Notes: generated from the sequence alone by a model not told the origin. A stretch of DNA of 64,000 bases from Candidatus Omnitrophota bacterium (GCA_020058085.1 JAGVER010000003.1:3708-67707), one strand, 5' to 3'. Positions 4,547 through 50,717 are shown, counted from the stretch's first letter. Made by a program: numbers and translations.

Positions 4547-6811
4547 ATGGTTAAGACCAAGAGTTCAAGGAAGGTAGTTAAAAAAGAACCTGCTCTTAAG
4601 GCTAAAAAGATAGTAAAGAAGGCTGTTAAGACAAGCCAACGGGCAGTGGTTTGGCATCCTCTGGCCAAAGCTACAACTAAGGTTGTCAAGCCGGTTAAGA
4701 AAGCTCTCTCTCTACCTAAATCTAAGAAAATCGTTACGCACAAAATACATACTGCGCCAGTTTCTAAGCCAACGCCTGCTATTAGGCTAGAAGGCCATGG
4801 TTTGGCCTCCTCTAGCCAAAGCCACAAGCCAGCGGGCAGTGGTTTGGCCTCCTCTAGCCAAAGCCACAAGCCAGCGGGCAGTGGTTTGCCTTCCTTTAGG
4901 CAAAGCCATAAATTAGAGCCTGTGGTTAAGCCGGAAATTAAAGTTGTTGAACCTAAGGTTGAAAATAGGCCGCATATTCAGGTTAAACCAGTGGTGAAAC
5001 CAGAGGTAAAGCCTGAAGTAAAAGCAGAGGTTGAAGTTGTTAAACCGAAAGTTGAACTTAAAGATTTAGAATTAGTACTTCCTATTACCCTTAAAGATTT
5101 GGCTATAAAGCTTCAGGAAAAGCCGTCAGTAATTATTAAGATGCTTATGGATATAAAAATAATGGCGGGGATAAATCAGACTTTAGATGAATCTATAGTA
5201 GAAAAAATTTGCGAAAAATATCATTGTAAGATTAAGAAGGCATTAGGAGAAGAAGAAATAGTTTTAAGCGCGCACGCGCTTGAGGATGAGGTAAAAGATT
5301 TAAAGCCGCGCTCATCCGTTGTTACATTCATGGGGCACGTTGACCATGGGAAAACTTCTCTTCTTGATGCCATAAGGAAAACTAAGGTTGCCGAATCCGA
5401 GCATGGCGGGATTACTCAGCATATCGGAGCTTATCGGGTAATTCTAAATCACGGAGAGATAACATTTTTGGATACTCCAGGACATGAAGCATTTACTGCT
5501 ATGCGTTCACGGGGCGCCAAGATTACTGATATAGTAGTCTTGGTTGTTGCCGCGGATGATGGTATTATGCCCCAGACTCAAGAGGCCATAGATCATGCCC
5601 GGGCAGCAGGCGTCTCTATAATCGTGGCTATAAACAAGATTGATAAAGCCGGCGCAGATGTTGATCAGGTGAAGAAGCAATTAGCTAAACTTGGCTTAAA
5701 TCCCGAGGATTGGGGTGGTAAGACCATAGTTGTCCCGGTATCAGCCAAGACAGGCGAAGGAATAGATAATCTTTTAGAGATGATTATATTAGAGTCGCAG
5801 ATGCTGGAATTAAAGGCTAATCCTAACCGGTTAGCGCGAGGAGTTGTTATTGAGGCCCAGATGTCTAAAGGGAGAGGTCCGGTAGCGACGTTTCTTGTGC
5901 AAAACGGTACTTTACATTTAAACGAAAATATCATTGTCGGTAATTTTTATGGCAAGATTCGGGCGATGTTTAATGATCATGGGCAGTCTGTAACTAGCGC
6001 TGCTCCTTCGGTCCCTGTTGAAGTTTTAGGTATTTCAGGCGTACCCGCGGCGGGAGAACAGTTTTTTGCCATTCTTCAGGAGAAAGAAGCTAAGGATTTA
6101 GCCTTTTTACGTATGGAAAAAGAAAGAGAGAATCAGGTGAAAACAGTAAAGCGTATAAGCCTGGAAGACTTGCATGCTCAGATTCAGGAAGGTAAGATAA
6201 AAGAATTAAAATTAATTATCAAGGCGGATGTTCAGGGTTCGCTTGAGGCAATCAGAGAGACCTTGAATAAGATGAATGTATCGGAGATAAAACTGGATTT
6301 TATACACTCTGGTGTAGGTAATATCAATAGCTCGGATATTATATTAGCGGTTGCTTCTAATGCTTTGATTTTAGGATTCAATGTTGATATTGACGATTTA
6401 GCTAAAGAACTTATGGCTAAAGAAGGGGTGGATGTAAAAAACTATAATATCATTTACGAATTAGCCAATGATATTAAAGCAGCAATTGAGGGTATGCTTG
6501 AGCCTAAGATTAAGAGAATTTTCTTAGGACGGGCTGAAGTTAGAAAGATGTTTAAGCTTTCCCGTTCGGGTATAGTCGCAGGATGCTTTGTTACTAAGGG
6601 TAAGTTTACCCGTAACTGTTTAGTTAATCTGGTCAGGAATGGAGCAGTAGTTTTTGAAGGTAAGCTTTCTTCGCTGAAGCGTTTCAAAGATGATGTGCGT
6701 GAAGTTGCTGAAGGTTTTGATTGCGGTATTAGCTTAGCCGGGTTCGACCAGTTGGCAGAGGGCGATATTATTGAAGCTTATACCGAAGAGAAGATAGCCA
6801 GAAGAATATGA
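4547..6811 (+). CDS. infB: Translation initiation factor IF-2
   Basis: G-domain motifs [20 protein letters not shown] and NKIDK. The repetitive, low-complexity N-terminal region carries the palindromic repeats. Confidence 0.95.
4632..4675 (+). repeat. Diverged copy of the same palindromic repeat inside infB, read in a different frame
   Basis: CAAGCCAACGGGCAGTGGTTTGGCATCCTCTGGCCAAAGCTACA compared with the unit CAAGCCAGCGGGCAGTGGTTTGGCCTCCTCTAGCCAAAGCCACA. Confidence 0.8.
4786..4911 (+). repeat. Tandem array of the palindromic repeat inside infB: two perfect 42-bp units (4798-4839, 4840-4881) plus a variant third copy
   Basis: Direct reading shows the unit TGGTTTGGCCTCCTCTAGCCAAAGCCACAAGCCAGCGGGCAG twice. 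Each unit contains the hairpin TGGTTTGGC/GCCAAAGCCA and is translated as [14 protein letters not shown]. Confidence 0.9.
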
Positions 6812-9573: not shown

Positions 9574-9625
9574 AGCTCCACATGCTAAAACCTAAGGTTT
9601 CTTGGAGCCCCAAAAGCTGGATACT

Positions 9626-9648
9626 TAGCCCCGCCTTTGGCGGGGCTA
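9626..9648 (+). terminator. Strong GC hairpin after ruvB (no T-tract; terminator or REP-like palindrome)
   Basis: TAGCCCCGCC-TTT-GGCGGGGCTA, a perfect 10-bp stem. Confidence 0.45.
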
Positions 9649-12379: not shown

Positions 12380-12399
12380 GTTGTTCTTACATAGTTTTT

Positions 12400-12600
12400 A
12401 GCGTCTGTCTTGTCTTTGCTTCATTCGGCACCGTTCGTCCCGCCCCACCGAGGCGAGACTCACTTGAAGTTTATGCTCGCTCGCCGTTAACTCTGTATTA
12501 GCGAAGGCACCTGGCCGCTCGCATAAACTAACATGCCGCCTGAACCAAAGCCAATCCATCCGCTAAAATCGACATTCGCTCAAAAATCCACCAGTGTCAT
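12400..12600 (+). repeat. Degenerate copy of the 42.7-kb inverted-repeat element, in the queA-downstream gap
   Basis: It shares the exact 20-mer GCTAAAATCGACATTCGCTC (12562-12581 = 42936-42955) and a similar right end (CCAGTGTCATTTT vs CCAGAGACATTT). It also has internal GC-rich hairpins, e.g. GTTTATGC/GCATAAAC. The boundaries are approximate. Confidence 0.5.
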
Positions 12601-16831: not shown

Positions 16832-17690
16832 AATATTAGCAGAAAGAATTAAGGAAGAGATAAAGGCGCAGATTTCTTCTTTAAAGTTTAAGCCAGTCTT
16901 GGCTAGTATTATGGTTGGAAATAATTGTGGAGCTGCTAGTTATGTTAAATCGCAACAGAAAACAGCAGAGGTATTAGGCATTGAATATCAGCTGCATAAG
17001 TTGGTTCAGGATTCTAGCGAAGCGCATCTATCTGATTTTATTCAAAGATTAAATGTTAATAAATCCGTAAATGGAATTATTATCCAAATGCCGCTTCCTG
17101 CGCATATAGATTATAAGAGGATTAGCCAGTTTATCCTGCCTGAAAAAGATGTTGAAGGAATGCACCCTCAGAATATCGGTAAACTTTTATTTGGAGCTAA
17201 GGGCTTCATTCCTTGTGCGGCTGCAGCAGTTATGGAGTTAATTGCCGCAAGCGGAGTTGATTTATACGGCAAGGAGGCCGTAGTAGTAGGCCATAGCGAA
17301 ATAGTAGGTAAGCCTTTAACACTTTTATTGTTGGATAAATTTGCCACGGTTACAATCTGTCATCTTGCAACAAGTAAAGCCGGAAAATTAGAGGAGCATA
17401 TAAGGCGCGCAGAGGTTTTAATCGTTGCGGTTGGTAAGGCCCGATTGATTAAGGGGGAATGGATCAAAAAAGGCGCGGTAGTTATAGATGTCGGAATAAA
17501 TCGCGTAGGAGATAAAATTGTCGGGGATGTAGAATTTGAGGGAGCAGAGAAACTCGCCTCCTACATTACTCCCGTTCCCGGAGGTGTGGGCCCGCTTACA
17601 GTTATGATCTTAATGCGTAATTTAGTTGAGGCAGCTAAGCTGCAACAGGAACCAAAATATATTGGTGAGGCACCCAATTCTAAAGGATGA
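16809..17690 (+). CDS. folD: Bifunctional methylene-THF dehydrogenase/methenyl-THF cyclohydrolase (TTG start)
   Basis: AKLLDGK, VVVGHSEIVGKPL and TPVPGGVGPLTV. Confidence 0.95.
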   Translation: MAKLLDGKILAERIKEEIKAQISSLKFKPVLASIMVGNNCGAASYVKSQQKTAEVLGIEYQLHKLVQDSSEAHLSDFIQRLNVNKSVNGIIIQMPLPAHIDYKRISQFILPEKDVEGMHPQNIGKLLFGAKGFIPCAAAAVMELIAASGVDLYGKEAVVVGHSEIVGKPLTLLLLDKFATVTICHLATSKAGKLEEHIRRAEVLIVAVGKARLIKGEWIKKGAVVIDVGINRVGDKIVGDVEFEGAEKLASYITPVPGGVGPLTVMILMRNLVEAAKLQQEPKYIGEAPNSKG

Positions 17691-17719
17691 ATTGGTGCCC
17701 ATAACTATGGGAGTTAGAT

Positions 17720-18589
17720 TTGACATTCAAAGAAAAATTACAATCAGGAAAATTTATGGTGACCTCGGAGATCGGGCCGCCAAAAGGTATTGATATCCGG
17801 CAGCTTTTAGAGGACGCCGAGCTTATCCGTAATCGAGTTGACGCAATTAATGTTACGGATTTACAGAGTTCAGTTATGCGCCTTGGTTCTTTAGCGGTTT
17901 CAAGCCTGCTGAAGCATCACGGATTTGAGCCGATATATCAGTTGACCTGTCGTGATCGTAACCGTTTAGCGCTGCAATCGGATCTTTTATCTGCTGCTGC
18001 TTTAGGTATTGAGAATATTTTAATACTTACCGGAGACCATCCGGAATTAGGGGATCATCCTGACGCTAAACCTGTATTTGATTTGGATTCTGTCCAGCTA
18101 TTACAAGTAGCTAAAATATTAGAGTCTGGTGCGGATATGAAAGGTAATAGATTAGTTGGTTCATCGCCAAAATTCTGTTTAGGCGCAGTGGTTAACCCCG
18201 GGGCGGAGCCATTAGAGCCGCAGATTATAAAGATGGAGAAGAAGATTGCCGCAGGGGCGGAATTCTTTCAGACTCAAGCGGTCTATGATTTAAGAATATT
18301 CGAGAATTTCTTAAATAAAACTAAGCACCTAAAAACTAAAATTATAGCGGGGATAGTTTTACTTAAGTCGGCGGGTATGGCTAGATATATGAATCAAAAT
18401 GTTGCCGGCGTATCTGTTCCGGATAATTTGATTAAAGAGATGGAAGAGGCAAAAGATAAAACTGCTCTTTCTGTTGAAATTGCTTCGCGTTTGATTAAGG
18501 AATTAAAGCCTATCTGTGACGGAATACATATTATGCCGATTGGCCTCGATAAGGTAGTTCCGCGCGTATTAGATGCCGCATCATTATGA
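17720..18589 (+). CDS. metF: Methylenetetrahydrofolate reductase (MetF-like)
   Basis: FMVTSEIGPPKG, QLTCRDRNR, ILILTGDHP and FFQTQAVYD are typical of MetF TIM barrels. Confidence 0.85.
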   Translation: MTFKEKLQSGKFMVTSEIGPPKGIDIRQLLEDAELIRNRVDAINVTDLQSSVMRLGSLAVSSLLKHHGFEPIYQLTCRDRNRLALQSDLLSAAALGIENILILTGDHPELGDHPDAKPVFDLDSVQLLQVAKILESGADMKGNRLVGSSPKFCLGAVVNPGAEPLEPQIIKMEKKIAAGAEFFQTQAVYDLRIFENFLNKTKHLKTKIIAGIVLLKSAGMARYMNQNVAGVSVPDNLIKEMEEAKDKTALSVEIASRLIKELKPICDGIHIMPIGLDKVVPRVLDAASL

Positions 18590-42196: not shown

Positions 42197-42246
42197 GAGG
42201 GTTTCTCATCTAGCCTGTTTCTCTCCGATTTTAAGCGTAGGTTATG

Positions 42247-42304
42247 GGGGACGGTTCTATTTTTCCATTTTTCTAGGTTTCTATTGAAAAATAGAACTGT
42301 CCCC
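42247..42304. promoter_or_regulatory. 18-bp inverted repeat (1 mismatch) between the divergent rpmB and HTH promoters; operator or insulator/terminator hairpin
   Basis: GGGGACGGTTCTATTTTT (42247-42264) pairs with AAAAATAGAACTGTCCCC (42287-42304), followed by TAGTTTTT. A related half-site, GGACAGATAGTTCTA, occurs near 45320. Confidence 0.55.
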
Positions 42305-42320
42305 TAGTTTTTAAAAGAAC

Positions 42321-42371: not shown

Positions 42372-42662
42372 ATGAACAATAAGAACTTTGGAGATTTATT
42401 AACAAGTATCGGACAGGCTAGGAAGATACATAGCGGCAGAATGAAACCCGGGAATATCTCTAAGTTTCATCCAATAATTGTAAAAAGAATACGTAAGAAA
42501 CTCCATAAATCCCAAACCGAATTTGCCTATTTAATCGGAGTTAGCGTTGATACTTTGCAGAATTGGGAACAGGGTAGGAGAAGGCCCGAAGGCCCGGCAT
42601 TGGCATTACTAAGAGTAGCGCAGTCTAATCCGGAAGTTGTTATAAAAGCTCTACATGCATAA
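42372..42662 (+). CDS. XRE-family HTH protein with MqsA/NadS-type antitoxin-like architecture, no cognate toxin ORF adjacent
   Basis: 96 aa. IRKKLHKSQTEFAYLIGVSVDTLQNWEQGRRRPEGPALALLRVAQSNPEVV is a classic HTH with the RxPxGxAxxLL tail. It has its own TTGACA-17-TATACT promoter. Confidence 0.75.
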   Translation: MNNKNFGDLLTSIGQARKIHSGRMKPGNISKFHPIIVKRIRKKLHKSQTEFAYLIGVSVDTLQNWEQGRRRPEGPALALLRVAQSNPEVVIKALHA

Positions 42663-42727
42663 TTTGTCCTTTAGAGCCCCATTTTTAAGGTTGCACCCGT
42701 ATTGAATCAGCAGTAGAATAAGTTTTG

Positions 42728-42976
42728 TAAATGTCTCTGGCAAGCTTCTCGCTCAGGTCGATTTTGCCACATAAAGTTACTATTTAGGCAATGCCAATGA
42801 TCTTTCGTATTTCGGCGGCAAAACAACTCGCGCTTCGGCTTCTGGCCTTGGCGCTCAAACAGTTTTGCCGTGCCTGTGTTGTCTCCCGCCTATGGCGGTA
42901 TCCACAGGCATTTCCTCAGTGCTCAAGCTCCATTGGCTAAAATCGACATTCGCTCGAACCATGCCAGAGACATTTA
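42728..42976 (+). repeat. ~249-bp element with 15-bp perfect terminal inverted repeats and several internal hairpins (MITE-like or structured ncRNA)
   Basis: TAAATGTCTCTGGCA (42728-42742) is the exact reverse complement of 42962-42976. The sub-terminal arms also pair (GTCGATTTTGCC / GGCTAAAATCGAC). Internal stems include CGGCAAAAC/GTTTTGCCG, GCCTGTG/CACAGGC and CCGCC/GGCGG. Confidence 0.7.
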
Positions 42977-43106
42977 AATAGGCTGAGGAGTCATTGGGAT
43001 TCATTGATTTGTTAGTAGCTATCTAGAAACGGTCTGGAATTTTTCGGATGATCATGTTGACAAAGGAGTAAAGAAATTGGATTTTTGACGGAGAGAATAT
43101 TAATTC

Positions 43107-44225
43107 ATGTTTGGACAATGGTTGGGCGGGACAATAGGAACAAATAAAGGTTTTTGTGTTTTGAATATAGAACCCGGTGCGCCATTAGAAGGCAGAATAA
43201 TGTTTTTTGACATGGACCAAACAAAGCATTCAATGTGGGCAAGCGTCTCTTTTAAGATAGAAAATGACAAGATAACAGGTAATTTATACAATTATCTGGT
43301 TTTCTACAAAAACGAATTAATAAAAAGCGAGGAATTAAATAAAGAAATCGCGCCTGAAAGATATCCAGTTACTGGCGAAATTAACGGCTCATTTATAGGA
43401 GGAAAGCTCAAGGGTAATTTTAAAACTAATGTAAATACTTTTGGAGAGTTTATTCTTACTAAAACCGTGCTTGGAGAGCCAACTAAGCCTAATCGAGAAA
43501 TGAGTTGGGGTGAATATAAGAAATTTGTCAGCGAGCTTGATCGAACCAACAAAGTCATAATCTTCCGGGGTCAATCCAATAATAATCAAAGATTAGTGAC
43601 TACTTACCATAGGTCAGGTAGGGCGGATTTATTTAGATATCTTGGTGGCGATATCCCAAATTTAGTTCGTTTTATAAATTTGATTCCGCCATACAAGTAT
43701 GATTTAAACAAAATCGGAGATCTTGATGCATTGTTAGGATTAGTTCAGCACCACGAATACCCAACTCCTTTCCTTGATTGGACAGAATCACCTTATATTG
43801 CTGCCTATTTCGCTTATAGAAAAGCAAAAAATGACCAACAGACCGACAAGGTTAGAATTTTCATTTTTGATACTGTTCCCTGGGTAAGTTTTTGGCAGGC
43901 AATAGCTCAAAACACTATATTAATAGCACCTAAGCCCGTTATTTCTATTCATAATCTTACCTCAACGAATAATAACCGAGCTATTCGACAAAAAGCAGTT
44001 TCAGTATTTTCTAATATTGTCGATATGGAAGCTTTTTTTGATGCGTCCAAAGAAACGGGGAAGTTGCCGGATTCTTTTTTTCAAAGAATTGACTTGCCAT
44101 ATTCTGAGAAAGAAGCAGCAATGAATGATCTTTTAGATATGGAGATTAGCACCGCAACATTATTCCCAGGTTTAGATGGGGTTTGTAGGTTCTTAAGTGA
44201 GCAATATTTTGGGAAAATAAATTAA
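43107..44225 (+). CDS. FRG-domain protein with unassigned ~130-aa N-terminal domain
   Basis: VIIFRGQSNNNQRLVTTYHR (the FRG motif at nt 43563-43571) and LGLVQHHEYPTPFLDWTESPYIAAYFA (the QHxGxPTxxLDWTxSP core of the FRG family). Confidence 0.75.
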   Translation: MFGQWLGGTIGTNKGFCVLNIEPGAPLEGRIMFFDMDQTKHSMWASVSFKIENDKITGNLYNYLVFYKNELIKSEELNKEIAPERYPVTGEINGSFIGGKLKGNFKTNVNTFGEFILTKTVLGEPTKPNREMSWGEYKKFVSELDRTNKVIIFRGQSNNNQRLVTTYHRSGRADLFRYLGGDIPNLVRFINLIPPYKYDLNKIGDLDALLGLVQHHEYPTPFLDWTESPYIAAYFAYRKAKNDQQTDKVRIFIFDTVPWVSFWQAIAQNTILIAPKPVISIHNLTSTNNNRAIRQKAVSVFSNIVDMEAFFDASKETGKLPDSFFQRIDLPYSEKEAAMNDLLDMEISTATLFPGLDGVCRFLSEQYFGKIN

Positions 44226-44236
44226 TTCCTATATAA

Positions 44237-44255
44237 TAGGCACATTTTGGGCACA
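44237..44255 (+). repeat. 19-nt direct repeat copy 1, 12 nt after the FRG gene stop
   Basis: TAGGCACATTTTGGGCACA, containing GGCACA-N4-GGGCACA. Confidence 0.7.
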
Positions 44256-44356
44256 AAGCAAAAAAGTGATGTTCTTAACTTGCTGCAAGATAACAGATAA
44301 AAGTTAATTGATGTAGAGCGAGGTGTTCTAATACCATGTTAGAATGAGGGTTGCAA

Positions 44357-45205
44357 ATGAAAGTTATTGCTCCGCTATTCAACTTTTGGTGTAAAGAGGG
44401 AATATCAGAATTTAAAATTACAAAATACTTCTCAATAAAGAAAGAAAAATACAACATAAAGAATGATGATGCAAAAGATTTTTTGTCCAAATATGAAAGA
44501 AGCGATATCTCTGAATGTGATTTTTTGGCAGAGATTGATAATGAGCCCAAAGATTTGAGTCCGGGAGAAATACTGAATGCATTTCTTTTGTCTATCTGGT
44601 TTATAGGACCTACTAAAGTCACAATTACCCATAGATTTGAAGAACCAAATACTATTTCAAGAATGCTGGATAGATTTCAACCTAATAAAAAAGATATATT
44701 TAAAGAAGAGCTATCAAAGGAGGATCTAAATACAGTTGCAAATTATTTCAAGTTGCTAATCAAGATAAGAAGAAGTAAAAAAAGATTATTCACTGCACTT
44801 GCTAATACATATCAAGGATGTATTGCACACCAATGGAAAGTAGCTTTTGTTCTTTTTACTGCAGCATTAGAAGCTATGTTGACATATAGCAGAGATGTGG
44901 GGATAACTAAACGATTATCTAAATCTTATGCTTGTGTAGTAGGAAAGACTAAATACAAAAGAGACCGCTACTATAGGCAATTTTATGGTCTTTACAGTGT
45001 ACGTTCAGATATAATGCATGGAAGAATAAGAAAATATTCAAAACCAGAAGGAAATTTGAAGTCTCTTTCAAAATTAGCAATATTATTAAGAAAACTATGG
45101 CAGGGTATATTAGAGAATGCTGCTTTATTAAATGCTTTAGAAAAAGACGATATGAACAGAAAACATTTTTTCAAGAATTTGGAACAGGGATATATTGCAC
45201 CTTGA
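44357..45205 (+). CDS. HEPN-like protein (Rx4H motif), function unknown (alternative TTG start at 44351)
   Basis: The C-terminal helical region has FTAALEAMLTY ... FYGLYSVRSDIMHGR, with R-S-D-I-M-H at nt 45002-45019. The N-terminal ~140 aa are unassigned. Confidence 0.6.
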   Translation: MKVIAPLFNFWCKEGISEFKITKYFSIKKEKYNIKNDDAKDFLSKYERSDISECDFLAEIDNEPKDLSPGEILNAFLLSIWFIGPTKVTITHRFEEPNTISRMLDRFQPNKKDIFKEELSKEDLNTVANYFKLLIKIRRSKKRLFTALANTYQGCIAHQWKVAFVLFTAALEAMLTYSRDVGITKRLSKSYACVVGKTKYKRDRYYRQFYGLYSVRSDIMHGRIRKYSKPEGNLKSLSKLAILLRKLWQGILENAALLNALEKDDMNRKHFFKNLEQGYIAP

Positions 45206-45245: not shown

Positions 45246-45371
45246 TGGTAATTGAAGAAAAATCATAACTAATTATACCATAACAAATTTAACTCATTTT
45301 GAGTTAGGACAGATAGTTCTAACTACTTCTGCTTGGGATTTTTATTTATAAGCGGTATAATTGAAGAGTAA

Positions 45372-45471
45372 TTAGCGGGTGACTTGGTTTGCACCTTGCC
45401 TCAAAGGATAGGCAAGTGCGCCCTTTTGGGCGATTACGAGCAGCATGTTAAGCCAAGGCAGGACCCGCTAA
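45372..45471 (+). repeat. Structured GC-rich element A (outer stem plus two adjacent hairpins) 16 nt upstream of the helicase-nuclease start
   Basis: Outer stem TTAGCGGGT/ACCCGCTAA. Hairpin 1 is GCACCTTGCCT/AGGCAAGTGC. Hairpin 2 is CGCCC-TTTT-GGGCG. Confidence 0.7.
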
Positions 45472-45487
45472 ACACGAAATTATAATC

Positions 45488-48397
45488 ATGAATAAAATAT
45501 TAGAAGGCCTAAATAAGGAGCAGTTGGAGGCGGTGACGCATAAAGAGGGGCCGCTTTTAATTATTGCCGGTGCAGGGACAGGGAAGACTACGGTGATTAG
45601 CCGGAGGATTGCCTGGCTTATCTCTGAAGGTTTGGCCAAGACTGATGAGATTTTAGCGCTTACCTTTACGGATAAAGCCGCTAAAGAGATGCAGGAGCGC
45701 GTGGATATCCTTGTTCCTTATGGATATACAGATATCTGGATATCTACATTTCATGCTTTTGGCGATCGAATCTTGCGTGAGAATTCTTTGATTGCCGGAT
45801 TAAATCCGGATTTTAAGGTTTTATCCCAGAGTGAAGCTACAGTATTCTTCCGCGAACGGCTCTTTCAGTTTACCTTAAATTATTTTCGGCCTTTAGCTGA
45901 TCCTACGCGTTTCATCGAAACACTTATACAATTATTCAGCCGGGCAAAAGATGAGGATATCTCGCCTCAAGAATATATTAAATACGCGCAGGATCTCTTA
46001 ATTAAGGCTAAAGCTGACCAGAAAGATCTAGCTCTGCAGGAAGAATCGCTTAGGGAATCAGAGGTAGCTAATGCTTATGTTAAATATCAGGAGCTTTTAG
46101 CTAAAGAAGGGCTTCTAGATTTTGGTAATCAGTTTTATCTTAGTTTGAATCTCTTGCGTAATCATCCGGCAGTATTAAAGAAGTATCAGAAGCAATTTAA
46201 ATATATCTTAGTTGATGAGTTCCAGGATACAAATTATGCCCAATATCAGTTGGCAAAGATTCTCACCAATAAAGAGCAAAATATTACCGTTACGGGGGAC
46301 GATGACCAGAGTATCTATCGTTGGCGCGGAGCAGCATATAGCAATCTCTTAAATTTTATTAATGAATATCCTGACACTAAAAAAGTAAGCCTTATCAGAA
46401 ATTACCGCTCTACACAGCCAATTTTAGATAGCGCGTATCAACTGATCCAGAATAATAATCCTGAACGTTTTGAGGTAAAAGCGAACATAAATAAGCGGCT
46501 CATTGGTTTAACCAAGGAAGGCCAGCTTCCTAAGCACCTGCATTATGATACTTATTCTACAGAGGCTGATAATGTAGCCAAGATTATTCATGAAAAGGTT
46601 AAATCAGGAGATTTTAGATATAGTGATTTTGCCATTCTTGTGCGTTCAAATTCCGATGCCCAGGGATTTCTCCAGGCGTTGAATATGGAAAATATTCCTT
46701 GGCAATTCAGTGGCAATCAGGGACTTTATTCAAGGGAAGAGGTAAAACTCTGTATTAATTTCTTAAGGGTGACAGCTAATCTCTCGGATTCTTTAAGTTT
46801 GTATTATCTGGTTAGTTCTGAAATCTATGGTTTAAATTTAATTGATCTTAATTTGTGCAATCATTATGCCCGGCGCAGGAATAAATCTCTGTATTCGGTA
46901 TTTAGAGAATTAAATAGTATCCCCGAATTAAAAGAGATAAGCGAGGACTCCTTAAAGAAGATAGAAGGGCTTCTTGCGGATTTAGATAAATATTTGAGGA
47001 TTGCCCGGGAAGAGACTACTGGTAGATTGCTCTATGCTTTTTTAACCGAGACTAGCTATCTAAAGAAATTAACCAGCCTGCAGAACCTAGAGAATGAGGA
47101 TAAGATCCGTAATATTGCCAAATTTTTTACTAATGTTCGGGATTTTGAATTAGTGGCAAAGGAAGACCGGGTGATCAGTTTTGTGAGTTATCTTAATTTA
47201 TTAATTGAAGCAGGAGATGATCCGCCTACAGTAGAAGCGGATTTAGATACTGATGCAGTCAATATACTCACAATACATAAGGCTAAAGGGCTTGAGTTCA
47301 GAGTTGTTTTCTTAGTTGGCCTGGTGCAAGGGCGTTTTCCCTGGCCGCACAGGTCAGAAGCAATTGAATTACCGGATGCATTGATAAAAGAAGTTTTGCC
47401 TAAAGGCGATTTTCATACTCATGAAGAACGCAGGTTATTTTATGTTGGGATGACTCGCGCAAAAGAGGAGTTATATCTAACCAGCGCCGAGGATTATGGC
47501 GGCAAGCGCCTGCGTAAGGTAAGCGCATTTGTTTTTGAGGCGCTAGGGACAGAAGCTAAAGAGAAAGAGAAGAAAAAGGCAAGCGCTATGGAGGCGATCG
47601 CACGTTTTGCCCCCAAGAAAGATTCGGCTAAGTCTCAAGATACAAAAATAGACGAGACTAAGCCTGTAAAATTAAGTTATTACCAGATCGATGATTATAT
47701 TACCTGTCCTTTAAAATACAAATACGTAAATATTTTGCGCGTTCCGATTATGGAGCATCATACGGTTATCTATGGCCGGGCAATGCATGAGGCAGTTACT
47801 CGGTATTTTCAGTTCAAGATGGCTGGCAGAAAAATGGAGTTGGATGATATCTTGAATGCTTTTGAATCAAGTTTTGACCCGCAGGGATTCTTGGATCAGT
47901 ATCATCAGGAGGAGAGGTCTAGGGTAGGCAGGGAGGCTTTAGTGAAGTTCTTCCACATGGAGGAAGAGTGCGATAGCAACCCAAAGTTTATTGAGAAAGA
48001 ATTTTCTTTTATCTTTGAGGGTAATAAAATCGCCGGAAGGTTTGACCGGGTAGATGAGGATGCTGAAGGGGATATTATTATTGATTTTAAGACCTCGGAA
48101 ATTAAGGCTCAAGATGTTGCGGACAAAAAAGCTCAAGAGAGCCTGCAGTTGGCCCTCTATGCTTTGGCTTATCAGCAGATATTTGGTAGATTGCCGCTGC
48201 GAGTTGAGCTATTTTTTCTTGAGTCTGGAATTATCGGGAGTTCTGTTATTGAAGAAGATGGCTTAGAAAAGATTAAGGAGAAGATTCGGATAGTATCTGA
48301 TGGGATACGCAGCCAGAATTTTAAGGCTACTCCTGCTTATATGGCATGTACATATTGTGCTTATAACCAGATTTGCCCTGCAGCTAAAGCCCGTTAG
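45488..48397 (+). CDS. UvrD/PcrA-family helicase fused to a C-terminal Cas4/AddB-like Cys4 PD-(D/E)xK nuclease
   Basis: AGAGTGKTT, VDEFQDTN, YRST, TIHKAKGLEF and VGMTRAKEEL are the helicase motifs. The C-terminus has YITCPLKY ... IIIDFKT ... QLALYALAY ... CTYCAYNQIC (one Cys plus CxxCx5C). Confidence 0.85.
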   Translation: MNKILEGLNKEQLEAVTHKEGPLLIIAGAGTGKTTVISRRIAWLISEGLAKTDEILALTFTDKAAKEMQERVDILVPYGYTDIWISTFHAFGDRILRENSLIAGLNPDFKVLSQSEATVFFRERLFQFTLNYFRPLADPTRFIETLIQLFSRAKDEDISPQEYIKYAQDLLIKAKADQKDLALQEESLRESEVANAYVKYQELLAKEGLLDFGNQFYLSLNLLRNHPAVLKKYQKQFKYILVDEFQDTNYAQYQLAKILTNKEQNITVTGDDDQSIYRWRGAAYSNLLNFINEYPDTKKVSLIRNYRSTQPILDSAYQLIQNNNPERFEVKANINKRLIGLTKEGQLPKHLHYDTYSTEADNVAKIIHEKVKSGDFRYSDFAILVRSNSDAQGFLQALNMENIPWQFSGNQGLYSREEVKLCINFLRVTANLSDSLSLYYLVSSEIYGLNLIDLNLCNHYARRRNKSLYSVFRELNSIPELKEISEDSLKKIEGLLADLDKYLRIAREETTGRLLYAFLTETSYLKKLTSLQNLENEDKIRNIAKFFTNVRDFELVAKEDRVISFVSYLNLLIEAGDDPPTVEADLDTDAVNILTIHKAKGLEFRVVFLVGLVQGRFPWPHRSEAIELPDALIKEVLPKGDFHTHEERRLFYVGMTRAKEELYLTSAEDYGGKRLRKVSAFVFEALGTEAKEKEKKKASAMEAIARFAPKKDSAKSQDTKIDETKPVKLSYYQIDDYITCPLKYKYVNILRVPIMEHHTVIYGRAMHEAVTRYFQFKMAGRKMELDDILNAFESSFDPQGFLDQYHQEERSRVGREALVKFFHMEEECDSNPKFIEKEFSFIFEGNKIAGRFDRVDEDAEGDIIIDFKTSEIKAQDVADKKAQESLQLALYALAYQQIFGRLPLRVELFFLESGIIGSSVIEEDGLEKIKEKIRIVSDGIRSQNFKATPAYMACTYCAYNQICPAAKAR

Positions 48398-48417
48398 GGG
48401 CTAGGAGGGTTTTAAGC

Positions 48418-48588
48418 TTGGAAACTAAGATCGGCCATTTAAAAGTTGAGATCTTTAAGATTAAAAATCGCTCTGGCTATGCGGCGATCTGTTGCGGCCA
48501 CCTTACTGAAGGCAAAACTGCTCAAGAGGCGCATGAGCGCATGATTAAAGCTTTGCGCAGGACTAATAGAAAAGAAGTCTCTGGATAA
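48418..48588 (+). CDS. Possible 56-aa HicB-like/UPF0150-like small protein (TTG start)
   Basis: A GGAGGG RBS lies 8 nt upstream. The translation LETKIGHLKVEIFKIKNRSGYAAICCGHLTEGKTAQEAHERMIKALRR loosely resembles the HicB N-terminal fold pattern. Evidence is weak. Confidence 0.3.
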   Translation: METKIGHLKVEIFKIKNRSGYAAICCGHLTEGKTAQEAHERMIKALRRTNRKEVSG

Positions 48589-48595
48589 AGATTCC

Positions 48596-48624
48596 TTGAG
48601 CGGCCGGGAGTTCTATGGTATATT
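48596..48624 (+). promoter_or_regulatory. Extended -10 promoter for the histidine kinase operon
   Basis: TTGAGC, a 17-bp spacer, then TGgTATATT. Its core TTCTATGGTATAT is identical to the promoter at 51501-51513. Confidence 0.6.
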
Positions 48625-48654
48625 CAGTCAAAGTATTTTGGTAGAAAGGTTAAA

Positions 48655-50073
48655 ATGTCTCCTATAGTAATATTATACATAGTAACAGCGGTTGTTAGTA
48701 CAGCGGTTGCCTTAGTATTGTTTAATTTGACAAAGATATCCGGGCGGGCGAAGATAACTACTGATAATAAAAGAGAAAAAATGGAATATTTAGATTCAAA
48801 TATTCTTCCTGGTAAGCCCTTGAAACAAGCTATACTTGAAGAAATAGATGAGTTTGTGGATTCAAAACAACAGCGTCAAGAAATAAGCAATAAGCTATCC
48901 GATGCTTTTGAGAAAGAATTAGAAAAGAAAATAAATCTGAGCACTCAAGAATTAAGTAAAAAATATGAAGCGGTTATTAAAGAAGAAAAACGAAATGAAG
49001 AGGTTACTTGGAAAAAATATAAGAAAGTACTTACTGATAAGAAAAGTACAGATGCAGTGATACGTAGCATCGCTGAAGGATTGGTTGTAGTAGACGCAGA
49101 AGGCAAGGTCATTATGATGAATCCTGCCGCGGAAAGACTTTTAGGTATTCCGAAGAAAGACAAAATCGGTAAACTTATTTCAGAGGACCTTAAAGAAGAG
49201 CAATTGATTTCTTTGATTAAAGGTTCATCTGATAAAGAGGAAAGAGAGATTGAGCTAATTAGTCAAAAAGATGATACTAAGAAGGTTCTAAGGGCGAGTA
49301 GCGCGGTTATAGAGAATGAAAATGGGCAGTCTATAGGCATGGTTTCTGTTCTAAGCGATATTTCCAAGCAGAAAGAGCTCGATCGATTAAAATCAAATTT
49401 TGTCTCTAGCGTCACTCATGAGCTACGCACGCCTCTGGTGGCCATAGATAAGTCCATCTCTTTGATTCTTACGAAAAGTGTAGGAGAGATTTCATCCGCT
49501 CAAGAGGAATTTCTTTCTATCGCGCAGCGTAATATTAAAAGACTCTCTAATATGATTAATGATCTGTTGGATCTCTCTAAGCTTGAAGCAGGAAAAATGG
49601 AAATCAAGGCTCGGCCATCTTCGATTGTATATGCCATTAATGAATCAGTTGAGTCTCTTAGTAATTGGTCGAAAACAAAATCTATCAGTATAGAAAAGAA
49701 AATAGAGGAAGGGCTGCCAGAAATAAATATTGATCCAGACAGGGTTATCCAGGTTTTAAATAATCTTATTGGTAATGCCATTAAATTTACGCCTACTAAT
49801 GGTAATATAACTATTGCAGTATCGTTAGATGGCGAGGGCAAAGCAGTAATGGTTAGTGTTCAGGATAACGGTATAGGTATATCTAAAGAAGATTTGCCTA
49901 AAATTTTTAACAAATTTTACCAGGCAGGAGAAAGAGTCGCTTCAGATATAAGTGGAACGGGTATAGGGTTATCAATTGTCAAAGAAATTGTTGAATTACA
50001 CGCTGGAAAGATTTGGGTAGAGAGCGAAAAGGGCGTAGGCGCACGGTTTATTTTTACGCTTCCATTAAAGTAA
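48655..50073 (+). CDS. Sensor histidine kinase (TM - coiled coil - PAS - HisKA - HATPase_c)
   Basis: H-box SVTHELRTPL, N-box LNNLIGNAIKFT, G1 VQDNGIGI, G2 GTGIGLSIV. Confidence 0.9.
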   Translation: MSPIVILYIVTAVVSTAVALVLFNLTKISGRAKITTDNKREKMEYLDSNILPGKPLKQAILEEIDEFVDSKQQRQEISNKLSDAFEKELEKKINLSTQELSKKYEAVIKEEKRNEEVTWKKYKKVLTDKKSTDAVIRSIAEGLVVVDAEGKVIMMNPAAERLLGIPKKDKIGKLISEDLKEEQLISLIKGSSDKEEREIELISQKDDTKKVLRASSAVIENENGQSIGMVSVLSDISKQKELDRLKSNFVSSVTHELRTPLVAIDKSISLILTKSVGEISSAQEEFLSIAQRNIKRLSNMINDLLDLSKLEAGKMEIKARPSSIVYAINESVESLSNWSKTKSISIEKKIEEGLPEINIDPDRVIQVLNNLIGNAIKFTPTNGNITIAVSLDGEGKAVMVSVQDNGIGISKEDLPKIFNKFYQAGERVASDISGTGIGLSIVKEIVELHAGKIWVESEKGVGARFIFTLPLK

Positions 50074-50123
50074 TTACACTGTGTTAGTTAACGAATCCAC
50101 TTTATATCGGTGTTAAAAAACAC

Positions 50124-50245
50124 CCGGCCTTATTTGCACCTTGGCATAAATGTACCTTTGCCTATTTGAAAGCAAAGTACGCTTCTTCTGAAGCGATTGC
50201 CAAGCGCCCCCTTCAGGGGGCGGCCCATTCGGGGCGAGAGGCCGG
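50124..50245 (+). repeat. Structured GC-rich element B, same architecture as element A with compensatory stem changes, in the kinase/receiver intergenic region
   Basis: Outer stem CCGGCCT/AGGCCGG. Hairpin 1 is GCACCTTGGCA/TGCCAAGCGC with two nested extra hairpins. Hairpin 2 is GCGCCCCC-TTCA-GGGGGCG. The leader TTTGCACCTTG is shared with A. Confidence 0.7.
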
Positions 50246-50315
50246 TACCTCGACATAAATGAATGTCGAGTATCCCGTTTTCTGCGGGATGTGCGCTAGT
50301 GCGCAAGGAGGAATA

Positions 50316-50717
50316 ATGATGGCTGAAAATAAAATTACCGTTCTTGTCGCGGAAGACGAAACCGATTTTCGTACAATAATGACGTTTTGGCTTGAATCAA
50401 AAGGCTACGCAGTTATACCCGCGTCTGATGGAAGAATGGCAGTGGAGCTGGCAAAAGAAAAAAATCCAGATGTTGTTTTTCTGGATTTGAATATGCCGGG
50501 CATGGATGGCGTTGAAGCTTTTAAGAGCATAAGGAAATTCAATATTGATGTTCCGATAATAATTATCAGCGCGCACTTAGGTACTCCCAGGGCCAAAGAG
50601 GCAATGTCTTTGGGGGCTTCAGGCGTATTTTCTAAAGAAGATGATTTTGAGAAAGGGTTCTCTTTATTAGAGATTGCTTTGAGAGGGAATAAAAAACTCA
50701 AGGAAAGGACAAAATAG
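50316..50717 (+). CDS. Single-domain response regulator (CheY-like receiver); ATG 50316 preferred over track start 50259
   Basis: An AAGGAGG RBS precedes 50316. Motifs are VLVAEDE, the phospho-acceptor in VVFLDLNMPGMDG, and ISAH. The track's N-terminal extension runs through a structured repeat. Confidence 0.85.
   Translation: MMAENKITVLVAEDETDFRTIMTFWLESKGYAVIPASDGRMAVELAKEKNPDVVFLDLNMPGMDGVEAFKSIRKFNIDVPIIIISAHLGTPRAKEAMSLGASGVFSKEDDFEKGFSLLEIALRGNKKLKERTK

Follow-up and report, generated by a model that had tools for sequence, protein, structure and literature searches.

The DNA analysed here is a stretch of 64,000 nucleotides from a Candidatus Omnitrophota bacterium (GCA_020058085.1 JAGVER010000003.1:3708-67707), referred to below as the window, which has a G+C content of about 39%, a strong positive GC skew and nearly all of its genes on the plus strand, and in which no tRNA or tmRNA was found. 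Two GC-rich palindromic elements, A and B, lie just 5' of plus-strand genes: A precedes the gene for a UvrD-type helicase fused to a nuclease, and B lies between the genes of a histidine kinase and a response regulator. In the initial annotation the two were considered to be copies of a single structured element, each in the 5' leader of a gene and with a fold preserved by compensatory base changes. We find that A is a rearranged member of a cross-phylum hairpin-repeat family that is uncatalogued in Rfam 15 and in the full-text literature searched, and that B and the hairpins beside it form a palindrome-rich insertion seen only in this genome and separate from A. Homology of the two as one regulatory RNA is not supported.

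Both elements were correctly placed in the earlier reading and both fold far better than shuffled sequences. The fold of A has an energy of -44.6 kcal/mol (z -4.3) and that of B of -59.4 kcal/mol (z -5.3), in each case with none of 200 shuffles as stable, and the minus strands of A and B fold about as stably as the plus strands. The minimum-energy fold of A contains the outer stem UAGCGGGU/ACCCGCUA, a hairpin 1 with a bulged C and a GCCC-UUUU-GGGC hairpin 2. Two further parts of this fold had been overlooked, namely a second stem of 8 bp (CUUGGUUU/AAGCCAAG) and a third hairpin, which is weak. B folds into an outer stem, a CUUGGCA/UGCCAAG stem, a CGCCCCC/GGGGGCG hairpin and a fourth hairpin. 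The outer stems and G/C hairpins described for the two elements are thus present in the folds, as are the two extra nested hairpins of B, which lie inside its CUUGGCA/UGCCAAG stem. The bulged-C hairpin 1, said to be common to both, forms in A and is missing from the fold of B, where its GCAC/GCGC extension needs an A-C mismatch and is not formed because GCGCCCCC pairs in hairpin 2 instead.

The base of A, AGCGGGUGAC...GGCAGGACCCGCU, defines a large family. A scan of metagenome contigs with the pattern AGCGGGTGAC, 36-96 nt, GGCAGGACCCGC yielded at least 120 loci with exact matches to the base, and the same base pattern had no match in 2.9 million viral contigs. Among the matches listed there are 113 distinct sequences of 63-114 nt, and 73 of the 83 representatives that were folded form one unbranched irregular hairpin. 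Alignment of all members with MAFFT and RNAalifold recovered only the base; a tight subfamily gave a full consensus structure, which seeded the model R1. This matched 101 places in 100 of the listed loci (L087-L186; loci are designated by L numbers), including second copies that lack the exact ends, and a second model, R2, was built from the 101 matches.

From base to apex, the consensus consists of a stem P1, a loop in which a 5' GA faces a 3' GCAGG, a stem P2, a G-rich 5' bulge, a GC-rich stem P3, a CGCA/GAGCA internal loop and a hypervariable apex. The conserved base reads 5'-(U)AGCGGGU-GA-C[P2]...[P2']G-GCAGG-ACCCGCU(A)-3', and the elements are about 65-180 nt long. In the R1 alignment, 93.6% of the paired cells carry standard pairs, compared with 66.7% after shuffling and 37-47% with the partners slid, double changes occur at 25 of the 30 pairs (595 cells), and G-U or U-G combinations outnumber A-C or C-A by 64 to 19, figures that lean toward structure because the alignment followed the model and the search pattern had set the ends. 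Conservation of the ends is likewise partly by construction, since the metagenome matches had been selected for exact ends. The hairpin fold of the family is nevertheless secure, because the effect is large and the subfamily alignment is independent. Compensatory change is also seen in P1 of members that were found by model and not by pattern (GGGGU/ACCCC in L052 and AAGUCU/AGACUU in L026), P2 covaries (CUUGG/CCAAG in the window versus CGAUG/CAUCG in L048), and the hairpin stems of the long forms are fully compensated (GUUUUGCC/GGCAAAAC, GUUGCGGC/GCCGCAAC and GUCCCGCC/GGCGGGAC).

The comparison with Rfam that had been proposed earlier assigned neither A nor B to a family. No match reached the gathering score for Rfam 15 in the window or for the elements in 12 loci; at E <=5 no family matched the elements in seven loci; and around A, B and nine homologous elements (E <=5 or 10) matches touched only the fringe, far below the gathering score. 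Literature searches with base sequence strings returned primers only, those for structured RNA in Omnitrophota returned nothing on this family, and it is not described in the papers on REP (repetitive extragenic palindromic) sequences and REPINs or on RepRanger.

A carries the family base, with P1 (GCGGGU/ACCCGC or a covarying equivalent), a 5' GA-C and a 3' G-GCAG(G)A beside P1', arranged around P2, and it aligns with the Omnitrophota members. In an unfiltered R2 search of the entire window, A was the sole significant match (45374-45468, 38.8 bits, E 2.3e-6), model positions 1-18 and 71-88 being aligned and the interior skipped as a local end. We regard A as an atypical or rearranged member because this skipped interior is a branched, lineage-specific junction of three hairpins, the unbranched interior typical of the family not being present. 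The second member within the 64-kb window, a long form with a fold of -78 kcal/mol (z -6.6), is antisense to the flanking plus-strand genes and homologous to long forms in L044, L005, L003 and L038. Coordinates of these and the other features are given in Table 1.

Table 1. Positions of the two elements, their parts and the neighbouring features in the window.
Feature	Position	Strand	Basis or remark
Second family member, long form, 178 nt	12395-12572	-	blastn to the L038 and L003 elements, alignment
Promoter-like TTGGGA-17-TATAAT	45333-45361	+	consensus scan, 10/12 matches; ends 10 nt 5' of A
Element A, short atypical member of the hairpin-repeat family	45372-45471	+	fold and family model R2
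Element A, P1	45373-45380/45463-45470	+	fold
Element A, loops next to P1	5' GA 45381-45382; 3' GCAGG 45458-45462	+	fold
Element A, P2	45383-45390/45450-45457	+	fold
Element A, interior hairpins	hairpin 1 45391-45419; hairpin 2 45420-45431; weak hairpin 3 45439-45449	+	fold
UvrD-type helicase fused to PD-(D/E)XK nuclease	45488-48397	+	Pfam
PAS-HisKA-HATPase histidine kinase, upstream of B	48655-50073	+	Pfam
Hairpin 5' of B	50109-50124	+	fold
Lineage-specific insertion of ~190 nt, kinase stop to receiver ribosome-binding site	50111-50303	+	orthologous spacers, fold
Element B, 122-nt multibranched GC-rich palindromic module	50124-50245	+	fold; not a detectable A-family member
Three small hairpins 3' of B	50249-50270, 50271-50291, 50292-50305	+	fold, whole spacer z -5.7
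Receiver-domain-only response regulator, downstream of B	50316-50717	+	Pfam

Orthologues of the helicase, mostly 68-78% identical, were found in about 48 Candidatus Omnitrophota loci, for which the ancestral gene order is recJ(+), rpmB(-), helicase(+). About 10 of the approximately 48 carry an element near the helicase, at varying positions and in varying orientations; most of the orthologues directly follow another gene, and in some genomes rpmB and the helicase are separated by as little as 79-80 nt, a spacer taken up by two overlapping divergent promoters and nothing else. A leader specific to the helicase was rejected on these grounds, most of the orthologous helicases having no element. 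Ends of the A type recur in about 10 Omnitrophota loci, with interiors, lengths (41-178 nt), positions and orientations that differ, the elements lying, for example, on the minus strand in L044, L048, L011 and L004 and on the plus strand in L003, L008, L009, L026 and L038, while in L005 a minus-strand element of 172 nt lies downstream of the helicase. AT-rich loci with family members were placed in Omnitrophota by their neighbouring proteins, and the abundant high-GC types are from Nitrospirota, with PolA 80% and an aminopeptidase about 90% identical to proteins of Nitrospirota bins. The family is found in Omnitrophota, Nitrospirota and one genome of Levybacteria, a lineage of the candidate phyla radiation (CPR).

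The spacers occupied by the family lie between housekeeping genes, and an all-against-all blastp comparison of the flanking open reading frames (ORFs) revealed no conserved neighbour gene. Orientation was counted for the AT-rich loci, because crude ORF calls are unreliable in the high-GC loci. Where the flanking genes are co-directional, 14 elements are antisense and five sense, and a further seven lie between convergent and four between divergent genes. Random orientation relative to genes had been named beforehand as the pattern that speaks for a plain DNA repeat and against a leader, and it is what we find for the A family, whose members occur in either orientation to genes. A cis-regulatory leader or riboswitch was accordingly rejected for the family, there being neither a fixed sense orientation nor a conserved class of downstream gene.

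Several further properties are those of a repeat. Two copies lie within a few kb of each other in 10 of the approximately 120 loci among the matches listed (L098, L102, L124, L126, L136, L146, L149, L158 and L179, all nine with R1, and L187), and they are arranged in tandem, convergently or divergently. In L179 the order is hexapeptide transferase(+), element(-), PepP (Xaa-Pro aminopeptidase)(+), element(+), TatA(+). The PepP-TatA spacer is empty and 33 nt long in the Nitrospirota loci L207 and L208, where PepP is 90% identical, as against 289 nt with two elements in L179, and the hexapeptide transferase and aminopeptidase genes, which overlap in L209, are separated in L179 by an element-bearing spacer. 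In more distant relatives, copies occupy different spacers of this gene neighbourhood. Nested copies occur, the flanks in L133 and L098 carrying an outer AGCGGGUGG...GACAGGACCCGC around an inner copy, and many copies lie at the tip of long locus-specific inverted repeats. In the Levybacteria locus L052, a member found with R2 lies inside tsaD and coincides exactly with an in-frame insert of 31 residues in the protein, an insert that the L056 and L051 orthologues do not have; this is a single in-frame case compared with more than 100 intergenic ones. Possible imperfect direct repeats of 8 bp flank the insertions in L179 (CCGATCCT/CCGATTCT, relative to the empty L207) and L052 (TTAAAAAG/TTAAAGAAG, relative to the empty L056).

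A different repeat, with the core GTCATCCTGA(A/G)CGAAG(T/C)GAAGGATC and encoding the peptide HPERSEGS, occupies the same tsaD site in L053 (about 2561-2635), and motifs similar to its core occur in L005 (about 5950-5990) and L070 (about 9590-9630); in Levybacteria, that loop of tsaD seems to tolerate the insertion of palindromic repeats. A 63-nt A-family member on the minus strand of L113 (3441-5440) lies directly 5' of two tRNA genes, with the gene for RNase P RNA farther downstream and every one of these on that strand.

The kinase-receiver spacer gives a separate picture for B. The best homologue of the kinase is 78% identical to that of the window. In six orthologous loci (L081-L086) the distance from kinase stop to receiver start is 31-59 nt and B is absent. 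Since the orthologous spacers are this short, and since that of L082 has the same flanks as the window (CTTTATATCGG and GGAGGA), the window carries an insertion of about 190 nt here. The three small hairpins that had been described between B and the receiver gene are real and, with a further hairpin 5' of B, belong to this spacer; the ribosome-binding site AAGGAGG (50305-50311) is unpaired in the predicted spacer fold. B is equally stable on both strands and lacks a U-tract. No B-like DNA was detected by blastn in the fetched loci, and B probably represents a further selfish palindromic insertion, one whose family has yet to be sampled.

Direct comparison of A with B fails to connect them. The ends of B, CCGGCCU/AGGCCGG, lack the GA/GCAGG loops of the A-family base, and B was not reported by the unfiltered R2 search of the window at E <=10. 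A covariance model of A alone, R3, did match B end to end, at 16.0 bits (E ~0.11) and rank 4, below the unrelated matches at 17658-17751 (22.4 bits) and, on the minus strand, 4752-4833 (18.7 bits). The leader 11-mer common to both, TTTGCACCTTG, does have only two occurrences in the window, one in each element, but this is no more than expected by chance (blastn E 1.7-2.9), and A and B each have exact matches of 11-14 nt, as long or longer, at unrelated sites in the window. The compensatory changes previously cited amount to two swapped pairs in one stem of two sequences and carry no statistical weight. With the similarity at chance level and B missed by the family model, the two are not demonstrably copies of one element; the earlier suggestion of a REP-like repeat family is supported for A alone, which belongs to a large dispersed family.

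These observations bear on two ways in which A and B might still be related. One is that they are homologous copies of a cis-regulatory leader RNA, each controlling its downstream gene (helicase-nuclease and response regulator, respectively) through a fold kept by compensatory changes. The position of both strongly folded elements on the plus strand just 5' of plus-strand genes, the 11-mer at a similar structural position in each, the end-to-end alignment of B by R3 exactly at the boundaries first drawn for it and the promoter-like site directly 5' of A speak for this reading. They are outweighed by the chance-level 11-mer (E ~2) and R3 score, by the invisibility of B to the family model, by the absence of an upstream element from about 38 of 48 orthologous helicases, with varying position and orientation elsewhere, by the absence of B from all six orthologous kinase-receiver spacers, and by family members that lie antisense to genes, between unrelated genes or inside tsaD. 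This twin leader-RNA reading is largely refuted, and we consider it very improbable. The other is that B is related to the palindromic-repeat superfamily of A, though highly diverged or chimeric, for example through a module of hairpin 1 and hairpin 2 captured both in the interior of A and in B. The interior of A does depart from the family consensus as though replaced, both elements carry TTTGCACCTTG followed by a stem ending in CAAG and then a G/C hairpin, the 3' junction of B (GGCGAGA-P1') is loosely like GGCAG(G)A-P1', and nested elements are documented in the A family. Against this, the similarity is statistically indistinguishable from chance, the module is in no other locus (the 11-mer is absent from L001-L080, and blastn gave no match to B in the fetched loci) and the A/B module pattern is without a match in viral contigs, and we consider a relationship of this kind improbable.

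The promoter-like sequence TTGGGA-17-TATAAT upstream of A, if used, would yield a helicase mRNA that begins with A as a 5'-terminal stem-loop and whose stability or initiation A could incidentally alter; given the repeat-like behaviour of its family, any such effect is probably incidental. The helicase start codon lies 16 nt 3' of A and has no Shine-Dalgarno (SD) sequence. Absence of an SD sequence at the helicase start (45472-45490 in the window) is also seen in L003, L007, L008, L009 and L038, and the predicted helicase 5' untranslated region is only about 5-12 nt long in element-free genomes; the receiver gene at 50316, by contrast, has a strong AAGGAGG. No terminator-like site, with a hairpin and U-tract, occurs on the plus strand at A, which is followed by AAACACGAAA, or at B, followed by UACCUCGAC, and the elements were rejected as intrinsic terminators.

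The interpretation that we favour, with reasonable though far from complete confidence, is that A is a copy of a dispersed non-autonomous hairpin repeat, of the REP/REPIN, miniature inverted-repeat transposable element (MITE) or Rickettsia palindromic element (RPE) kind, and that B is a different, genome-specific insertion. The family would then be a non-autonomous mobile or proliferating DNA element. What is selected would be the hairpin form of one strand, because the pairs covary and G-U combinations exceed A-C by 64 to 19, and the folded single strand may be recognised by a structure-specific enzyme acting in trans, for example a transposase of the HUH/Y1 type; a transcribed copy would simply be a stable stem-loop.

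Several observations weigh against this interpretation. The metagenome matches were chosen by their exact ends and covariation was counted on a model-fitted alignment; the copies were counted in contig fragments; and no transposase was present among the flanking genes examined, which came from contig fragments, no search aimed at the REP-associated tyrosine transposase (RAYT) having been made. The target-site duplications are only suggestive and limited to the two cases in L179 and L052, and the label of selfish insertion for B derives from a single copy. REP and MITE families are normally lineage-specific, for which reason it is unusual to find almost the same 10- and 12-nt base sequences in three phyla; this would sit better with a conserved functional RNA or a protein-binding module. 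The G-U excess also fits selection at the RNA level, and recurrence in the same rpmB-helicase spacer in Omnitrophota could reflect vertical inheritance of a locus-specific element.

Such points raise the alternative that the A family is primarily a functional module of RNA or single-stranded nucleic acid, with a conserved internal loop or bulge, at the base of a variable hairpin, that is bound by a conserved host protein (such as a nuclease, chaperone or ribosome-associated factor). The module would serve as an mRNA end-stabiliser, processing site or insulator in any transcript that contains it, with copies spread by duplication and kept by selection. In its favour, all three phyla have kept the sequence of the asymmetric base (5' GA opposite 3' GCAGG) even as the stems change by covariation, and the G-U excess is on a defined strand. 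Moreover, the element ends 10-16 nt before an SD-less start codon in several AT-rich loci (those of the window helicase and of one and the same tmk-like gene in L089, L112 and L172), and promoter-like -10 boxes lie just 5' of several Omnitrophota copies. A module of this kind is, however, difficult to reconcile with an orientation to flanking genes that is unfixed and leans to antisense, with nested copies and one in-frame in tsaD, or with presence and absence differing between close relatives at the same spacer. There are also decayed or truncated members (L026 lacks one P3 strand, L009 has only 41 nt and the interior of A is replaced), and neither a conserved terminator nor a conserved neighbour gene is found, so that we judge this alternative unlikely. 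More tentatively than for the dispersed repeat itself, it is possible that the asymmetric base, AGCGGGU-GA-C ... G-GCAGG-ACCCGCU, is the recognition module of an undescribed system common to Nitrospirota, Omnitrophota and CPR, either a hairpin-targeting mobilisation machinery or a host protein that reads a portable RNA signal.

Compared with known systems, a dispersed hairpin repeat of the A type would seem closest to REPs and REPINs in size and form, to RPEs in its in-frame insertion and to MITEs of the Correia and ERIC type in its polymorphism within transcribed spacers. REPINs are REP doublets that form hairpins and are mobilised by RAYT Y1 transposases. They and the A family are alike in being short, non-coding, GC-rich imperfect palindromes of similar size (REPINs about 70-110 nt) that are intergenic, multi-copy and found in either orientation, at times as inverted neighbouring pairs, with compensatory change in their stems and with stem-loops formed once transcribed. 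REPs carry an end tag, GTAG or CGTC (PMC3733652), which the A family lacks, the two bases before AGCGGG being variable (TT, AT, CC, AA, GT and others), and whereas REP families are normally lineage-specific (PMC3337134), the base sequence of the A family occurs in three phyla. In addition, the arms of the A-family hairpin are not simple inverted copies, given the asymmetric base with GA opposite GCAGG, and one copy lies inside a coding gene.

RPEs resemble the family in being palindromic repeats of about 100 nt that occur in-frame in genes, adding a peptide as the L052 copy does in tsaD, as well as between genes. They are confined to Rickettsia and its relatives, however, whereas the A family has one in-frame case against more than 100 intergenic ones, and we know of no sequence relation between the two. 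Correia/NEMIS and ERIC/IRU MITEs are, like the A family, non-autonomous elements of 70-150 bp with inverted-repeat ends that lie within neighbouring mRNAs, are polymorphic in presence between relatives and can alter the expression of adjacent genes. The perfect terminal inverted repeats of the A family (AGCGGGT/ACCCGCT) are by comparison only 7-9 bp long, and to our knowledge the family has no parent insertion sequence.

Other identities were tried and rejected. Signal recognition particle (SRP, 4.5S) RNA was suggested by AGCCAAGGCAG and GGCAGG near the 3' end; like the family, it forms an elongated, irregular hairpin (about 65-115 nt) whose ends pair, with a GGCAGG on the 3' side near the closing stem, an AGCA-containing internal loop near the apex and no conserved neighbour gene. 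SRP RNA was rejected because the A family has no domain IV motif or GNRA tetraloop, its apex being hypervariable, because there is no Rfam match, and because the family occurs in multiple copies, some of them nested and one inside a gene, and in both orientations. Among candidates checked against Rfam, 6S RNA, Y RNA, RNase P fragments and a tmRNA-like RNA (suggested by CUGGAUUCGA in L048) misfit in size, architecture or gene context, as do group II intron domains, omega or bridge RNAs and retrons. A kink-turn at the base is not compatible with the sequence, in which the register gives G-C, A-G and C-G with a 3-nt AGG bulge instead of tandem sheared G-A pairs, and a sigma-54 promoter in GGCAGGACCCGC would have a GG-GC spacing of 8, not 10.

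Other structured elements and repeats lie near A or elsewhere in the window. At 42715-42980 (plus strand as read) there is a GC-rich structured element of about 250 nt with a closing 14-bp stem, AAATGTCTCTGGCA/TGCCAGAGACATTT, for which Rfam matches up to E 10 cover part at most and are far below gathering. Relatives with 69-76% identity occur in other Omnitrophota loci (L003 5620-5765, L038 5668-5853, L041 5807-5982, L071 4484-4635, L112 3115-3341 and L040 24-122), usually beside the rpmB promoter and just 5' of an A-family element. Its box TCCATTGGCTAAAATCGACATTCGCTC recurs at 12555-12584 and overlaps there, as the reverse complement, with the 5' end of the long-form repeat, so that this element may be a divergent minus-strand relative. 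Between rpmB and a helix-turn-helix (HTH) gene, at 42245-42306, lies a near-perfect 21-bp inverted repeat, GGGGGACGGTTCTATTTTTC...GAAAAATAGAACTGTCCCC, which may represent another palindromic repeat family; the motif GGGACAGTCCC occurs in A-family flanks of L005, L092 and L105, with a near variant, GGGACAGACCC, in L087. The region from rpmB to the helicase (42372-45205) encodes an MqsA-like HTH antitoxin, an FRG-domain protein and a 284-residue ORF without a Pfam match and looks like an inserted island; relatives have a short spacer there.

Across a gene junction at 17669-17699, the hairpin GCACC-CAAUUC-UAAAGGAU-GAAUUG-GUGC gives an R3 match of 22.4 bits (E ~0.003). It has the same flanks and loop as hairpin 1 of A (GCACC-UUGCCU-CAAAGGAU-AGGCAA-GUGC), with all six stem pairs swapped and a Shine-Dalgarno-like loop, a likeness that could be due to chance or to a small shared module. 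Five repeat copies with a 42-nt period, three of them in tandem and with 63-91% identity to the reference copy, lie at 4631-4911 inside a 754-residue ORF (4547-6811), and their minus strand gives weak R3 matches. In L044 (6001-10002) and L073 (6001-9954) the helicase orthologue is split at the same position by about 1 kb, matching residues ~1-276 and then resuming, which could be caused by an intein, an intron or an insertion.

Twin riboregulators at this locus would, if real, have been a new cis-regulatory RNA, which the evidence does not show. What has been added is a hairpin-repeat family defined by covariance models, absent from Rfam 15 and the searched literature, that spans poorly studied phyla and combines a near-identical cross-phylum base with nesting, presence/absence polymorphism and in-frame insertion in a gene. 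Because such repeats resemble conserved, covarying structured RNAs, they mislead screens of metagenome-assembled genomes for non-coding RNAs and riboswitches; knowing the family averts false regulatory annotation and gives a means of following genome dynamics and, possibly, horizontal exchange between these phyla. The conserved bulge motif offers a direct handle on a dedicated mobilising or binding protein, if one exists. Were the base indeed the recognition module of an undescribed system, the family would be a structured element that crosses phyla and has no entry in present catalogues of RNAs or repeats, and a new mobilisation machinery could move elements between phyla, into hairpin loops and into genes.

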